From an uncultured candidate division Zixibacteria bacterium (GTDB lineage: Bacteria > Zixibacteria > MSB-5A5 > GN15 > FEB-12): a stretch of DNA of 64,000 nt. This document shows, in pieces, positions 2,063 through 49,821 of the stretch (within the stretch, counting starts at the first letter, position 1; every line of letters begins with the position of its first letter). The DNA is taken from contig CAVTJJ010000004.1 in the NCBI GenBank assembly GCA_963735035.1, positions 864,001-928,000 of the forward strand, given 5' to 3'. The notes below the pieces were generated by a model. The model was given only the letters and a program-made list of their open reading frames with translations, was not told the DNA's origin and ran no database searches. The position numbers were made by a program, and so were the translations under genes.

Positions 2063-3328
2063 ATGCTGAAACGAATCATGCTGGCCGCTTCTCTGTCTTT
2101 GATAGTAGTGGCATCTGTGGCTGCGCAGGCCAATAACATTGTCGATACAACCTTCGCAGTCAGTAAAGTCAACGATCATCTTTTCGTGGTGACAGGTCGT
2201 GTCGGCCTGTCTGTTAATTTTGTCGTGTCGGCCGGAGCCGACGGAGTCCTGCTGGTCGACGCCGGTAGTTCAGAAACGGCCGGAAAGTTGAGCCGCTTCC
2301 TGGATTCGCTGACCGACGTGCCAATCAAGTATGTGATTACGACTCATCCCCACGATGACCACTATGCGGGTAATCAGAACTTCGGGCCGGATGTACGCAT
2401 CATGGCCGACAGCAACGCCGCCGCGAGAATGAGCGGCAAATATTGTTCGCTGCCGCCGTTGCCGGGCACTCGGGGTGTGGACATAGCCCTGTCGAAAGAC
2501 ACCTCGATATTCTTCAATGGCGAAGAAATACGATTGATTCATGTGCCGACGACCCACACCGACGGTGATCTGATGGTCTTCTTCTCCAAGTCCAAAGTGC
2601 TTTGCGCGGGTGATCTGGTCTTTGCAGACATTATCCCGTTCGTTGACCTGGCCTCGGGCGGCAATGTTCAGAATTACGTAGCCAACACCAAACACCTCAT
2701 GGATACGCTGCCAGCGGACGTCAAGATCGTACCCGGCCACGGGCGAATCTACAGCCGGGAAGACTTGAAAGCGGTCTACGAAATGATGACTTATACTACC
2801 GGGGCAGTGAACGAGGCAAGAAGTCAGAATCGGACGGCGGAGCAGGTCCTTCAAGATCCCGGATTGAGTCGCTGGGCGGCCTGGGATGGCTCTCAGCGAA
2901 TCACCCAGATGAGCTACTGGATTCCATGTATCTTCCGCAGCCTTGAAGGTGCTGGACCCGCGTCCAAACCATCGATCTGTGCGCCGTTGACAGAGGCCAT
3001 AGTTCACGGTGGGATCGACTCGGCCCTGGCGCTGTATAGTAGATTGAAGAAAGCTCAACCGAATGGATACGATTTCGAAGAGGATCAACTGAACATTCTT
3101 GGCTATGAATTGCTGAACCGGAAGATGATGCCTGAGGCGAAGGCCATTTTCAATCTCAACTGTACAGAGCATCCTGAGTCAGGCAATGCTTTCGACAGCA
3201 TGGGTGAGTTCTACATGAATACCGGCGAGCGCGATCTGGCGATTCAGTTCTATCAGAAGTCGCTTGAGAAGAATCCTGAAAACACCAACGCGGTAGCAAT
3301 GCTTAAGCGACTAATGAGCGGCCAGTAA
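2063..3328 (+). CDS. Secreted metallo-beta-lactamase-fold hydrolase with C-terminal TPR domain
   Basis: Signal peptide MLKRIMLAASLSLIVVASVAA after RBS AAAGGT; THPHDDH, HTDGD, AGDL and VPGHG metal motifs; C-terminal LNILGYELL...NAFDSMGEFY...YQKSLEKNPEN TPR. Confidence 0.88.
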   Translation: MLKRIMLAASLSLIVVASVAAQANNIVDTTFAVSKVNDHLFVVTGRVGLSVNFVVSAGADGVLLVDAGSSETAGKLSRFLDSLTDVPIKYVITTHPHDDHYAGNQNFGPDVRIMADSNAAARMSGKYCSLPPLPGTRGVDIALSKDTSIFFNGEEIRLIHVPTTHTDGDLMVFFSKSKVLCAGDLVFADIIPFVDLASGGNVQNYVANTKHLMDTLPADVKIVPGHGRIYSREDLKAVYEMMTYTTGAVNEARSQNRTAEQVLQDPGLSRWAAWDGSQRITQMSYWIPCIFRSLEGAGPASKPSICAPLTEAIVHGGIDSALALYSRLKKAQPNGYDFEEDQLNILGYELLNRKMMPEAKAIFNLNCTEHPESGNAFDSMGEFYMNTGERDLAIQFYQKSLEKNPENTNAVAMLKRLMSGQ

Positions 3329-3335
3329 GTTCGGT

Positions 3336-3785
3336 CTAAGCAAAGGTGCGGTACTTAGCCGATTTCAAACGCGTCCGGTGGGGATGTTTCACCGACGGCA
3401 CGCAGAAGTCCGGGCCTTCGTGACGTCTCATTCGGACGGTCAGGTCCTGGCAGCCGCGACAGCGCCGGATACTTCCGAGTGCTTCAGCCTTGATCCGTCG
3501 CTTCTTTTCGTGGGTTGGAGCATAAACCGGATGCTTGACGATTTCGTAACCTTTAGAAGGGTCGTGGTCGTCGAGGAATCGTACCCCGGCTTCGATCTCG
3601 TTAGTGCCGTCCTTGTAGATCGTCGCGCCGGGACATTCAATGATAACATGATCATCGGTGGAAGATGTCTCGATGAAAATTTCGGACGCAGTCAGGAGTT
3701 CTGAATTACAGTCCAGGCAGACCAGGGTACCGTTTCTCTGAATCAGAGGGCGTCCGCAATTGATGCAGGTCGAGGTCGAGTTCAC
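3336..3785 (-). CDS. Hypothetical Cys-rich (zinc-ribbon-like) protein
   Basis: CINCG...VCLDC near the N-terminus and RCRGCQ near the C-terminus; start uncertain (GTG 3785 after AGGTG; ORF open to 3827). Confidence 0.6.
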   Translation of the reverse strand: MNSTSTCINCGRPLIQRNGTLVCLDCNSELLTASEIFIETSSTDDHVIIECPGATIYKDGTNEIEAGVRFLDDHDPSKGYEIVKHPVYAPTHEKKRRIKAEALGSIRRCRGCQDLTVRMRRHEGPDFCVPSVKHPHRTRLKSAKYRTFA

Positions 3786-3904
3786 TTTTGCACCTGTTTC
3801 TCGAAGTTTCATGAGAGATAGATGCAAGCGGACTGCCGACCGGGGTAGTTGACTCTAAGTGAATGTTGGCGTGTCTGTTGAGGGTCCCATTGTCACTTTG
3901 CAGA

Positions 3905-3939
3905 ATAAGAAAAGCGGCCCGCCTCTGGGGCGGACCGCT
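3905..3939 (-). terminator. Intrinsic terminator downstream of the 4548-3999 gene pair
   Basis: Stem AGCGGcCCGCC/GGCGGaCCGCT with a T-rich tail on the minus strand. Confidence 0.65.
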
Positions 3940-3998
3940 ATACGCTGTAGGTAGCGTCCAACATCCGCGGAAATGCCAAGCCGCGGCAGGTTATCTAG

Positions 3999-4328
3999 TT
4001 ATCCTTTGAATAATAGCACCAATGAGCACAGGGTGACCGTCACCGGCAGCGCCACGCCGAAACTGACCGGCAATATGAGCGACGCCAGGAAAGCGAGCAC
4101 CAACGCTGGCACCACCAGGTATTTGATCGCCGCGATAGTCATCATCACCAGACGAGACACGACAAACACGATCAGCACGCCCAGCGTGATGTAGGCTGCG
4201 ATCAAGCCGGTCTGGCCGAAGTTGTCGAGGATGTATTGCCTTGCGGCAACAATCAACCCCGAGTAATCGCCTGCTTTGGCGATGGCTTCTTCAGCCAGAA
4301 TCTTCGCTTTTGTCAAAAGCTCAAACAT
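3999..4328 (-). CDS. Small integral membrane protein
   Basis: Three hydrophobic segments; start overlaps the stop of the upstream 75-aa ORF. Confidence 0.75.
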   Translation of the reverse strand: MFELLTKAKILAEEAIAKAGDYSGLIVAARQYILDNFGQTGLIAAYITLGVLIVFVVSRLVMMTIAAIKYLVVPALVLAFLASLILPVSFGVALPVTVTLCSLVLLFKG

Positions 4329-4548
4329 CGGCCGCTTCTTCCAAAGGTTCAATGGTCAACGATGATTCGCCCACTCGACTCAGTCCCACCATTCGGTGGG
4401 TCAGGAAATTCTGAGTGGTAATCCACTTGTGGGACACGTCCATGATCTCATCCTGATCGACGTCGCTGATCCAGTCGAGAATGATATGATCGATGTTCTC
4501 TTCGTTCACGACGACGTCGTCCATGGTCAACACAAACTTTACTTTCAT
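4321..4548 (-). CDS. Small acidic hypothetical protein (75 aa)
   Basis: Clean ORF with protein-like composition, translationally coupled to the next gene. Confidence 0.7.
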   Translation of the reverse strand: MKVKFVLTMDDVVVNEENIDHIILDWISDVDQDEIMDVSHKWITTQNFLTHRMVGLSRVGESSLTIEPLEEAADV

Positions 4549-4754
4549 AACATACCGTTCCGGCTTTGTGTTTCTGTTCCGTTCCGGTACTGTGCAATGG
4601 GGATGCCACCCGCTGGAGATATCGCGCGGGGGTGCTTAAGCTGCTTCTGGTCAACGGGTTAGGGTGGGACGAACGGGATCGTCGGGCCACCCCTCAGCGG
4701 TGTCGAGCATGGGGCTGTCCGCCAGGTATGGGGGGAAGGCCATAGAGTGGGGAG

Positions 4755-4788
4755 TAACAATAAGACGGGCGGCCGGTTAGGCCGCCCG
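4755..4788 (-). terminator. Intrinsic terminator closing the putative ncRNA
   Basis: 9-bp GC stem CGGGCGGCC/GGCCGCCCG (4766-4774/4780-4788) followed by TCTTATTGTT on the minus strand. Confidence 0.75.
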
Positions 4789-5171
4789 CTGGAAATCGAC
4801 TGCAGTAGTCAACCGAGAACTGGTAGACTCGGTTGCCCCAAGACAGGGGCCGGTTTCAGTCGCCGGTTGAAAGAACTACGACTCAGTGTCGTCGGTCAAT
4901 CAAAGCGACAAGGCTACCGGAAGGCCATGGCAGACGCGGAGGGGAACCTCGGCGCTGCTCCAAGTCCCTTTGGACTACCAAAATCCCGCTATCCCTCGCG
5001 GCAGTGACGGAGAACCGTCCGACGACCGAGAGATAACCTCACTCCATAAGCATTCCTCCATCCTTGAGATGTGCTCTACTAGCGGTGAGGTTACGAGACG
5101 GGGATTGCAGTGACTCTAGCGCCGGACCCGACGTTATTGGGCAGCCGGGAGACGGCATCGTCTGATCTCGT
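4760..5171 (-). ncRNA. Putative large structured non-coding RNA, family unidentified (~410 nt)
   Basis: Bounded by a TTGACA-N17-TATGAT promoter and a terminator; no minus-strand ORF of 60 aa or more; many nested complementary segments (see findings). Confidence 0.6.
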
Positions 5172-5177
5172 GCTTAT

Positions 5178-5206
5178 ATCATAGTTATGAAGGCCGTTGT
5201 TGTCAA
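5178..5206 (-). promoter_or_regulatory. sigma70-type promoter of the putative ncRNA
   Basis: Minus strand TTGACA(5206-5201)-17 nt-TATGAT(5183-5178). Confidence 0.8.
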
Positions 5207-5262
5207 GGGATTTGTGGTTATGAGGCGGGGGTGCCACACAGTAGCTCCGGTGGATCAGTCTT

Positions 5263-5417
5263 GTAGGTCAGGAGCCCTGAGGCTCCTGACGAAATGTTAG
5301 TTCAAATATACAAGTGTCAGGAGGCTAAGGCCTCCTGACCTACTAGACTCAAGGGGCAGACGAGGACGTCTGCCGCCCACTCAAAATTGGCGGGTTCGAA
5401 GACGGACCCACCCTACG
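5263..5417. repeat. Cluster of REP-like palindromes (GTAG-type, BIME-like)
   Basis: GTAGGTCAGGAGCCCTGAGGCTCCTGAC (5263-5290), inverted copy 5316-5343, GGCAGACGAGGACGTCTGCC, GGCGGGTTCGAAGACGGACCCACCCTACG (5389-5417); the same families recur at 59552-59780. Confidence 0.8.
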
Positions 5418-5421
5418 GGCC

Positions 5422-5450
5422 TTGACATTCGCGGCACATACGACTAAATT
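5422..5450 (+). promoter_or_regulatory. sigma70-type promoter
   Basis: TTGACA-N17-TAAATT, 30 nt upstream of ORF 5480. Confidence 0.6.
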
Positions 5451-5479
5451 TTGACAAACATATCAGTCAGGCGGGCATT

Positions 5480-6109
5480 ATGATCATCAGGATAACCGTA
5501 AGCATAGTCGTGGCGCTGGTTTTCGCCGCGTCTTCATGGGCACAAGGGGTTATGCTCAATTTCAACGAAGATGGTTCGTACGTCGAAGCGGGGTATCTCT
5601 CCAACCGGTTCGGAGCCGGGGGCGGTGCCGGTCTGGGCTTTACCCGGGGAGCCCTGGATCTCGGAATAGAATGTGGTTTTATGGGGGGCGATTATGTGAG
5701 TTCCACAAGCATAGCGCAGGAAGCTGCATTTGATTTCACCCGTCTCTCCAAGTTCGAAAGTCCCGTGAGCTTTCAGCTCCGCGAAGCGGTGGGCTTGAGT
5801 ACAAACAGTAACATCACCCTGGCCCTGGGACCCGCCCTGTATCTGAGAGCCGTCGATCCTCTCGGAGCAACTTGTGTGGTCGGTGGTGGTGTGTCCGTCT
5901 TGCAGGGATTGTCCGGCGGGTCCACTCGGGAGGCGGTGTTTGTTTCTGACATGAGTCTTGCACTGGGATATCGTACAGGGGGAACTTGTGTCAGTGTGGT
6001 AGGTTCGGCGTCGTTTGGCGACTACCTTACGACGTATTCTCTTGGTCTGAATTTCAATTTCATCGGCAAGGAGGCTCGGTTCGGGAGGGTGTACGAGACG
6101 TGGGAGTAG
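5480..6109 (+). CDS. Secreted protein, probable small outer-membrane beta-barrel
   Basis: Signal peptide ending SWA; Gly/aromatic alternating strands, TYSLGLNFNF near the end. Confidence 0.65.
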   Translation: MIIRITVSIVVALVFAASSWAQGVMLNFNEDGSYVEAGYLSNRFGAGGGAGLGFTRGALDLGIECGFMGGDYVSSTSIAQEAAFDFTRLSKFESPVSFQLREAVGLSTNSNITLALGPALYLRAVDPLGATCVVGGGVSVLQGLSGGSTREAVFVSDMSLALGYRTGGTCVSVVGSASFGDYLTTYSLGLNFNFIGKEARFGRVYETWE

Positions 6110-6261: not shown

Positions 6262-6768
6262 ATGAGGCCACATTCGGACCCCAATGCACGTATCATGATG
6301 GCTGGATTGGGTTTCTTGTTGATGGCACTTGTGGTTGCACACCTGTCGTGCGCCACTGGACGTAGGATCGGAGAGCACGACAAGACCGTTGAAGGAGAGT
6401 TCACTGTACTCTGGGTAGACAGTACTATGCTGAACTATAACCTCGTCATTATGTGTTTGAGTGACAAGGGACCGTTCGCTGTAGTTTCGGCCAAGGACAG
6501 CACAGGTACACCCCAGATTCTCAGCGATTCATCAAAGCTTAGAGAGGGAATGAGGTGCCATTTGCAGATTCGCCTATGGGAGGTTATGGATCAGCCAATT
6601 ATCGAACCCATTCTTCGCGTTGCTAATTTGACAGAGGTCAACTTATATGGGGCATGTAGGGCAGGGACCGATTCACTCGCATTTCTCTGGTTAGGCCATT
6701 CGGTCAAGACTCGGCTATACCGCAGTGATGACATTGCTGGCCTGTATGTGCGGGCGCATGCCCGGTAG
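6262..6768 (+). CDS. Hypothetical lipoprotein
   Basis: RBS GAGG; hydrophobic segment ending VAHLSC (lipobox-like). Confidence 0.55.
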   Translation: MRPHSDPNARIMMAGLGFLLMALVVAHLSCATGRRIGEHDKTVEGEFTVLWVDSTMLNYNLVIMCLSDKGPFAVVSAKDSTGTPQILSDSSKLREGMRCHLQIRLWEVMDQPIIEPILRVANLTEVNLYGACRAGTDSLAFLWLGHSVKTRLYRSDDIAGLYVRAHAR

Positions 6769-49732: not shown

Positions 49733-49821
49733 GGAGAGGTGGCCGAGCGGTCGAAGGCGTCGGTCTCGAAAACCGATGTGCCCTTCGGGCACCCTGGGTT
49801 CGAATCCCAGCCTCTCCGCCA
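49733..49821 (+). tRNA. tRNA-Ser (anticodon CGA)
   Basis: GGAGAGG/CCTCTCC acceptor stem, anticodon arm TCGGT-CTCGAAA-ACCGA, long variable arm GTGCCC-TTC-GGGCAC, GGTTCGAATCC, encoded GCCA end. Confidence 0.98.

Follow-up and report, generated by a model that had tools for sequence, protein, structure and literature searches.

What is made from positions 4755 to 5206 of this 64,000-nucleotide (nt) stretch of an uncultured Zixibacteria genome (the window; contig CAVTJJ010000004.1 of assembly GCA_963735035.1), where the minus strand carries a promoter, a terminator and no evident gene between them? The earlier note, made from the letters alone, had seen here an unidentified and ornately folded non-coding RNA, perhaps a sponge for a CsrA/RsmA-type protein and perhaps the first of a new large class. 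We found transcription signals, missing coding capacity, conservation of both synteny and sequence, and covarying hairpins at this locus, and on such sequence evidence the window RNA belongs, as a divergent member, to a hitherto undescribed RNA family from one order of Candidatus Zixiibacteriota, with a predicted start-stop translation signal as the family's core. As to function, we give about an even chance to the reading that the window copy is a stand-alone, sigma-70-transcribed and terminator-ended structured RNA of ~415 nt, and that the family acts in trans as a modular riboregulator built around the start-stop core.

The transcription unit and its relatives

The promoter that the earlier note had read as TTGACA-N17-TATGAT matches at 11 of 12 positions (5206-5178, minus strand; Table 1), and the terminator it had placed downstream is indeed a G-C-rich stem-loop of 10 pairs (4789-4765, minus), followed by CTTATTGTTA, in which the U-tract is interrupted. 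The longest minus-strand open reading frames (ORFs) within the interval encode 48, 39 and 32 amino acids (aa), in line with the claim that no credible ORF lies there, and the indel lengths in an alignment of the genus are not multiples of three; we therefore regard the RNA as lacking coding capacity. The minimum free energy of the 421-nt segment 4755-5175 (minus) is far below that of shuffled sequence (-179.6 vs. -152.2 ± 5.7 kcal/mol, z = -4.80), none of 100 dinucleotide-preserving shuffles being as low as the native sequence.

Relatives of this RNA exist both within and beyond the genus. Searches with blastn (61 relatives) and with R1, a structure model of the RNA core that was run over 108 family and 151 phylum genomes, recovered the RNA in both of the other two species of the genus and gave no match outside it; a pattern scan of a genome collection returned a single locus (in genome G001), and a metagenome scan with an invariant 18-mer returned 14 loci, one of which (L026) is a true homologue. 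The wider family was reached through synteny with a 75-aa gene alone, by collecting the DNA upstream of that gene from 90 genomes. A TTGAC-N17-20-TAnnnT promoter stands at the corresponding distance in 77 of these 90 loci, an intrinsic terminator at about -200 to -280 in 86, and a sigma-54-type promoter pattern at -55 to -76 in 81, and the non-coding RNAs bounded by the sigma-70 promoter and the terminator are mostly 370-550 nt long. With filters off, R1 gave weak matches exactly at the syntenic place in several loci (best E 8e-4), and a sister family within the order has the same arrangement, mini-ORF included, at 7 of 10 loci. Because this layout of promoters and terminator is conserved across most of the 90 loci, we take the RNA to be its own transcription unit beside a sigma-54-driven gene, and not the leader of that gene.

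No known RNA family was recognised at the locus. A scan of the whole window with the 4227 models of Rfam 15, which include 6S, tmRNA, RNase P, SRP, CsrB/Rsm, OLE, GOLLD, ROOL, raiA, riboswitches, T-box and introns, gave at gathering score a sole match, a transfer RNA at 49733-49818, and none at the RNA locus; at E ≤ 10 over 3300-5600 there were six chance-level matches, all of at most 17 bits, and the 20 homologous loci gave none at E ≤ 0.1. A divergent housekeeping RNA was considered and set aside, because RNase P, tmRNA and SRP RNA sit elsewhere in the genome (273.8, 183.7 and 72 bits, all above cut-offs). We found no 6S RNA in the genome, and a many-branched RNA of ~415 nt would be unlike the rod shape of 6S. 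Mimicry of 16S ribosomal RNA was rejected as well: GTAATACG is common to 16S and 17 of 59 RNAs of the family, but the maxima for shuffled 16S reach 16, and the 3' tail of 16S is ordinary.

Ten public sequencing runs hold small shares of the stretch, five of them RNA libraries, and since all ten carry small shares only, we claim no habitat. Four of the RNA libraries, from four studies, contain at 80% likeness nine short contigs of relatives (51-257 nt), all within 4815-5149 and none passing the promoter or the terminator, which we take as a hint of expression and not as proof. Together with the homologues, the covariation described below and the lack of an Rfam match, these relatives in RNA libraries favour the second suggestion of the earlier note, that of a new large class of non-coding RNA.

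The start-stop module and the hairpins around it

The best-conserved block of the family is a Shine-Dalgarno (SD) sequence, GGAGGR, followed by a spacer and an AUG, which is present in 65 of 67 RNAs and lies 108-197 nt from the predicted 5' end; in the window, the whole start-stop element is invariant across four genus-level sequences. The spacer measures 5-9 nt, and 7-8 nt in 46 of 59 RNAs. R2, a sequence-only model of the SD-AUG block that was searched over whole genomes, matched, mostly at the syntenic site, in 23 of 54 family genomes, in 1 of 15 from the sister family and in 0 of 82 from 17 other families. This module, the most conserved feature of the RNA, is absent from the earlier note.

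We compared the frame behind this AUG in 59 non-redundant RNAs with those behind the 246 other AUGs of the same RNAs. The frame is at most two codons long in 28 of the 59 RNAs (vs. 10% of the control AUGs) and at most seven codons long in 64% (vs. 31%), with a median of 3 codons vs. 15. Of the 27 two-codon frames, 15 end in TGA, 8 in TAA and 4 in TAG; this use of all three stop codons is what one would expect if the stop itself, and not a pairing partner, were selected. Neither the length of the frame nor the peptide sequence is conserved across the family. These counts show that the frame behind the family's predicted ribosome-binding site is selected to stop almost immediately. The SD itself appears to be held in structure: in single-sequence folds its mean unpaired probability is 0.20 vs. 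0.40 for background, it is predicted to be paired in 52 of 53 cases, and in ~33 of 59 RNAs, as read by eye from the list, its pairing partner is a CCUYC stretch that lies 26-61 nt upstream.

Several further elements are shared across the family. The hexamer CCTCAC is the most enriched (38 of 59 RNAs vs. 6.6 expected) and often lies in a hairpin loop, with a closing stem of at least 5 base pairs (bp) in 12 of 47 cases vs. 13% with permuted flanks; a list read by eye showed no consistent covariation between the base that precedes CCUCAC and the one that follows GGAGG. In support of a shared tail ahead of the terminator (consensus AUCCGUAAUACGA), ATACGA is found in 28 of 59 RNAs vs. 4.5 expected. 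About 140 nt after the AUG stands a hairpin with the loop C-[A-N-G-G-A-N-N]-G, whose stems differ between species; its GGA anchor is present in 39 of 59 RNAs, and the window copy has CGGUA, not GGA, at that place. A large loop of ~20 nt, with the consensus (C)ACGCUCACCUAUCAUCC, is likewise closed by 5-8-bp stems that differ between species. We scored one structure consisting of the terminator and three hairpins (GGA, large-loop and a variable one), and in 19 family sequences its covariation was 0.437 vs. 0.201 for shuffles, a value that 0 of 500 shuffles reached (slid controls ≤0.196), with compensatory changes in 4 of 5 pairs of the GGA hairpin and 5 of 6 pairs of the large-loop hairpin.

Within the genus, we could ask how much of the ornate, nested fold is conserved. 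All of the complementary segments and hairpins that the earlier note had named do pair or fold in the window sequence, and we counted their conservation as the percentage of paired cells over four genus-level sequences aligned with MAFFT. Local elements fared best: the terminator stem is paired in 97.5% of cells with compensatory changes present, helix 5085-5093/5034-5042 in 86%, and the 5' closing helix (5166-5171/5093-5098) in ~80%; the hairpin at 4835-4810 has compensatory changes in 6 of 8 pairs, and further local hairpins are listed in Table 1. A GUCC-tetraloop-GGAC hairpin is kept in three of the sequences, and the fourth was judged likewise by eye from the alignment; in our judgement, this 4975-4964 hairpin would be a better reading of the one first drawn at 4974-4959. 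On the contrary, the long-range closures 5019-5026/4888-4895 and 4875-4879/4805-4809 are each paired in 45% of cells and the hairpin at 4866-4850 in 31%, and the two parts of the proposed pseudoknot (4857-4862/4797-4802) pair in 75% and 25%; the way MAFFT aligned variable stretches may account for part of these low values. For the earlier structure as a whole, 75.9% of cells are paired vs. 69.8% in shuffles, and its covariation score of 0.234 vs. 0.130 was reached by 0 of 500 shuffles (slid controls ≤0.105), so that a covariation signal is present at the level of the genus as it is at that of the family. What stands of the ornate fold is thus its local hairpins, whereas the long-range closures and the 4866-4850 hairpin are not conserved, and nor is the pseudoknot.

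A candidate partner and the possible modes of action

If the large loop is a pairing element, it should have a partner, and we searched five family genomes for its reverse complement. The genome-wide number of complementary sites with up to three mismatches equals the control; the near-exact complements fall at the start of another transcript. This unit has the promoter TTGACAA-N8-YTTAGCC-N-TATATT, followed after 5-7 nt by (C)GGAUGAUAGGUGAG, and the transcript's first 14 nt, GGAUGAUAGGUGAC, hardly vary within the family. The 28 family genomes from which the unit was extracted conserve its promoter and 5' end, and so do G001 and the window's own genome (G000); in the latter, a leader of a few hundred nt precedes an ORF whose end matches Dockerin_1 below threshold (21 bits against a cut-off of 22.9). 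Rfam gave no family match at the partner loci; elsewhere in the genus, the promoter pattern matched only an unrelated site in G002, and the G002 partner was not found. Exact 13-14-nt copies of GGATGATAGGTGA also occur in G077 and G013 (loci L151 and L152, both at ~501-516), with no recognisable promoter before them; they may have arisen by chance or may be target sites of another kind.

We then paired the first 16 nt of the partner with the whole RNA in 23 genomes, with the reversed partner as control (mean -12.7 kcal/mol). A duplex of -17 kcal/mol or lower formed within the large loop in 9 of 23 genomes, and one of -15 to -17 in three more. In two instances a change on one side is met by a change on the other: in G106 and G108 partner A8 to G8 is matched by loop U to C, and partner G14 to C14 is matched by loop C to G in G001, where the duplex with the partner's first 20 nt reaches -29.5 kcal/mol (0 of 100 shuffles as low).

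What we propose is a riboregulator that acts in trans and is built of three modules. At the first, the start-stop module, which is usually predicted to be held closed by the upstream CCUYC segment, the docking partner would be a ribosome or else a protein able to read start regions with GGA; the second would be the conserved C-[A-N-G-G-A-N-N]-G hairpin ~140 nt downstream; and in the third, which many members possess, the ~20-nt loop CUCACCUAUCAUCC would pair with GGAUGAUAGGUGAG, the invariant 5' end of a messenger RNA (mRNA) with a strong promoter, in the window's genome one that would encode a protein with a dockerin-like end. We infer the action in trans, the use of the start region by the ribosome (or by CsrA) and, wherever the loop is kept, its pairing with the partner. 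The window copy keeps the first module and the central hairpins and has lost the third, so that its present activity would have to rest on the start-stop module and the remaining hairpins.

Several observations speak against this proposal. Frames of 11-55 codons are found in about a third of members, so that a strict start-stop is not universal; RNAalifold gives no consensus helix closing the SD in the family, and on whole-family MAFFT alignments it recovers only the terminator and the GGA hairpin. The family is narrow: whole-genome searches with R1 recover only the genus, and the arrangement was seen in 0 of 6 loci of family f5, 0 of 2 of f9 and none of the single loci of f2, f3, f8 and f13. 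Neither the strand nor the ends of a transcript can be told from the RNA-library contigs, which may also stem from carried-over DNA. As for the partner, 11 of the 23 RNA-partner pairs are at control level, and native and permuted pairs score alike (-17.6 vs. -16.8 kcal/mol); since the partner end is nearly invariant, the case for co-evolution comes down to the two compensatory instances. The best duplex of the window RNA itself with the partner's first 20 nt is -14.3 kcal/mol, while shuffles average -17.3 and 95 of 100 are as low. This missing complementarity, together with the degenerate remnant at 4880-4867, indicates that the window copy has lost the loop, though the partner in the same genome keeps its 5' end.

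How does the sponge suggestion fare? CsrA is encoded in the genome (PF02599, 82.8 bits, C4:1519983-1520138, 105 aa), as that suggestion presupposes; the gene adjoins flgK, fliW lies 2 kb away (124.8 bits), and all three genes fall within 4 kb (G000:C4:1518500-1522716), which makes this the flagellar partner-switch type of CsrA locus. CA.GGA is enriched (1.58 per RNA vs. 0.56 in shuffles) and clusters at two fixed places, the SD and +120 to +160, whereas GGA as such is barely enriched (10.3 per RNA vs. 9.2); the window RNA has 9 GGA and 1 CA.GGA. Sponges of the CsrB/RsmZ type carry many sites. Here, there are about two per RNA, ~140 nt apart, and with no general excess of GGA this is not a CsrB-type sponge, and the suggestion is weakly supported. 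A narrower version would have one CsrA dimer bridge the SD-overlapping GGA and the GGA hairpin loop, so that the RNA either titrates CsrA as a decoy or is itself controlled by CsrA in competition with ribosomes. According to PMC4894983, CsrA/RsmE target CANGGANG apical loops, which the C-G-closed A-N-GGA-N-N loop resembles, and no sponge RNAs are known from FliW-bearing bacteria; the window's own hairpin CUC-AAGGAUG-GAG, moreover, is placed at the SD. Nonetheless, we consider this version unlikely: the two sites lie far from the optimal spacing of ~18 nt given in the same paper, the second of them is anchored in only some of the RNAs and reads CGGUA in the window, and neither the invariant AUG at ribosomal spacing nor the selection for an early stop is explained.

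It is the conserved SD, spacer and AUG and the selected early stops, with all three stop codons in use, that would be accounted for if the RNA were a sensor of translation capacity, in which a 70S ribosome initiating and terminating on the start-stop opens the fold that closes the SD, and the shape, lifetime or partner binding of the RNA reports on free ribosomes or initiation factors. The predicted pairing of almost every SD fits such a sensor, as do start-stop sites of E. coli, which bind ribosomes with regulatory effects according to bioRxiv 10.1101/520783. Translation of the mini-ORF is, however, predicted from sequence only, and the long frames in a third of members and the lack of a consensus closing helix tell against the sensor as well. 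Protection of RNA by ribosomes is reportedly known from other systems; the idea of a bound ribosome as a block to exonuclease was rejected here, because RNase J, the enzyme in question, was not found above cut-off in the genome. We attach only a small probability to a pure sensor. The two lines could also be combined in a ribosome-gated riboregulator, in which a full-strength ribosome-binding site with its start-one codon-stop frame would be kept for a single purpose, that futile rounds of initiation and termination open the fold and so tie the pairing with the 5' end of the partner, a secreted-protein mRNA, or the binding of CsrA, to free translation capacity; this is a doubtful idea, which we offer as speculation, and no such ribosome-gated class of bacterial RNA is described in the literature that we searched.

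A cis-acting leader is a quite improbable alternative. In that case transcription begun at the sigma-70 promoter would be attenuated on reaching the terminator, the mini-ORF would serve as sensor, and expression of the 75-aa gene and of its membrane-protein partner would depend on read-through. About 86 of 90 loci have the RNA in one fixed place, immediately ahead of the 75-aa gene, the U-tract of the window's terminator is interrupted, and a short ORF with a terminator recalls leader-peptide attenuation. However, the downstream gene has its own sigma-54 promoter between terminator and start codon in 81 of 90 loci; the terminator lies ~250-300 nt past the mini-ORF, and two codons are unable to sense an amino acid (the median frame being 3 codons); the RNA at L026 precedes a convergent transporter gene instead of the 75-aa gene; and the 75-aa gene is present in 237 of 251 phylum genomes, while the RNA arrangement has been seen in two families only. 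We also tried, and rejected, base-pairing between the RNA and the 75-aa gene's 5' region, there being no co-varying complementarity (native -31.9 vs. permuted -31.1 kcal/mol). Finally, that the RNA is the mRNA or the remnant of a small protein gene, its start site left over or still serving a peptide, is very improbable indeed: the start region is strong and conserved and 4 of 65 RNAs have frames of 41-55 codons, but the peptides have no common length or sequence, 28 of 59 frames are at most two codons long, and conservation runs 300 nt further as covarying hairpins and loops.

Surroundings of the RNA and comparison with known systems

The features of the locus are collected in Table 1.

Table 1. 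Coordinates of the RNA, its elements, the genes downstream of it and its candidate partner.
Feature	Positions	Strand	Remarks
sigma-70-type promoter	5206-5178	minus	-35 TTGACA 5206-5201, 17-nt spacer, -10 TATGAT 5183-5178; 11/12 positions match
RNA (predicted)	4756-5171	minus	~415 nt, from predicted start near 5171 to end of U-rich tail
CCUCAC, anti-Shine-Dalgarno-like	5085-5090	minus	pairs with GUGAGG just after AUG (5085-5093/5034-5042)
hairpin CUC-AAGGAUG-GAG, GGA in loop	5056-5068	minus	3' arm overlaps SD; consensus fold of three homologues
initiation region and mini-ORF (predicted)	5039-5059	minus	GGAGGA 5059-5054, 6-nt spacer AUGCUU, AUG 5047-5045, GAG 5044-5042, UGA 5041-5039
hairpin GACGG-UUCU-CCGUC	5006-5019	minus	87.5% paired, 2 compensatory pairs
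hairpin GUCC-AAAG-GGAC	4964-4975	minus	consensus fold of three sequences; loop GCAA in G001
hairpin GCAGCGCCGAGGUUCCCCUCCGCGUCUGC	4930-4958	minus	97.7% paired; 9/11 pairs invariant
remnant GUAGUUCUUUCAACC of the family's large loop CUCACCUAUCAUCC	4867-4880	minus	degenerate; from alignment with G001
two adjacent hairpins, 4850-4835 and 4835-4810	4810-4850	minus	87.5% and 81% paired
single-stranded tail CUGCAGUCGAUUUCC before terminator	4790-4804	minus	family consensus AUCCGUAAUACGA
intrinsic terminator	4756-4789	minus	stem-loop 4789-4765, 10 pairs (9 G-C); tail CUUAUUGUU
sigma-54-type promoter TGGCATCCCCATTGC	4594-4608	minus	~46 nt before start codon of 75-aa gene; outside RNA
75-aa gene, acidic protein	4321-4548	minus	directly downstream of RNA
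117-aa membrane protein gene	3999-4352	minus	protein known only from Zixibacteria
terminator	3939-3913	minus	after 117-aa gene
163-aa protein gene	3336-3827	minus	weak zinc-ribbon matches
partner transcript, strongly promoted	G000:C4 ~134700-136200		5' unit ~134749; L186 1470-2960; outside window

The 75-aa gene is present in 96 of 108 family genomes as well as in most of the phylum, and rpoN, which encodes sigma-54, is found in the genome. About 130 nt upstream of the sigma-54 promoter, at 4727-4745 (minus), lies a conserved inverted repeat, TATGG-N8-CCATA, with a TTGT..ACAA element, to which an enhancer-binding protein might bind. The plus strand has a further sigma-54-like match, TGGCACTTGTGGTTGC at 6323-6338, which is at chance level (2 found vs. 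1.36 expected). A function for the RNA could not be read from its neighbours: Pfam has no family for the 75-aa, 117-aa and 209-aa proteins, the protein Atlas gave only Zixibacteria hypothetical proteins for the neighbours, and a structural model of the 75-aa protein (predicted local distance difference test 76) had no match in the PDB at E ≤ 0.001. Upstream of the RNA's promoter, at 5257-5375 (minus), there are two similar hairpins, GTCAGGAGGCCTTAGCCTCCTGAC and GTCAGGAGCCTCAGGGCTCCTGAC, with a third, GGGCGGCAGACGTCCTCGTCTGCCCC, nearby, and only the first of them scores as terminator-like. At the metagenome locus L026, the gene upstream of the RNA (1127-1522, minus) encodes repeats of the form ...TLGDIM.LVD.LFI.G..., which resemble the dockerin-like end of the protein encoded by the G000 partner mRNA.

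A full-text literature search for non-coding RNA in Zixibacteria gave only one match, which concerns a different organism, and the family described here would give these uncultured bacteria their first candidate for a family of regulatory RNAs, one whose architecture can be tested. Its best-conserved element is, as far as can be predicted, a translation start that leads nowhere, set in a long and strongly promoted RNA that in many species has a 14-nt loop matching another conserved transcript at its 5' end, and the apparent loss of the seed loop in one lineage, with the rest of the RNA kept, bears on how modular regulatory RNAs evolve.

Which known systems does it resemble? RNAIII of Staphylococcus aureus is a stand-alone RNA of several hundred nt with its own promoter and terminator, whose C-rich loops pair with the start regions of mRNAs and which also makes delta-haemolysin. 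The family shares with it the promoter and terminator, the many hairpins, C-rich loops whose pairing is here putative, and an internal SD with a short frame; it differs in having no sequence or Rfam match, in a frame that usually has two codons and yields no peptide where RNAIII encodes delta-haemolysin, and in a single candidate target that is the extreme 5' end of an mRNA and not a ribosome-binding site. With large structured bacterial RNAs of Rfam such as OLE, GOLLD, ROOL, HEARO and raiA it has in common that it is long, conserved, structured, narrow in range and without an assigned function; unlike them it has no Rfam match, and its covariation is limited to local hairpins. The CsrB/RsmY/RsmZ sponges, and the flaA leader of C. 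jejuni that titrates CsrA (PMC4894983), are matched by the C-G-closed GGA loop, the SD-overlapping GGA and the presence of csrA and fliW, and set apart from it by their sites, of which there are here ~2, ~140 nt apart, by the conserved AUG with its early stop and by the absence of a match to the CsrB/Rsm models.

The core itself has its likenesses in start-stop sites and minigenes. Two-codon minigenes are reportedly known in phage lambda. In E. coli, the start-stop sites of yecJ and hslR bind ribosomes and weakly modulate expression, and as with the family described here a regulatory role is suspected (bioRxiv 10.1101/520783). Those sites and the lambda minigenes, however, lie inside genes or phage transcripts, whereas the element here is the core of a stand-alone RNA in two bacterial families and usually has one sense codon between start and stop; should ribosomes truly use this frame, an element known until now from the inside of E. 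coli genes would have in this family a counterpart that stands alone and is conserved in evolution.

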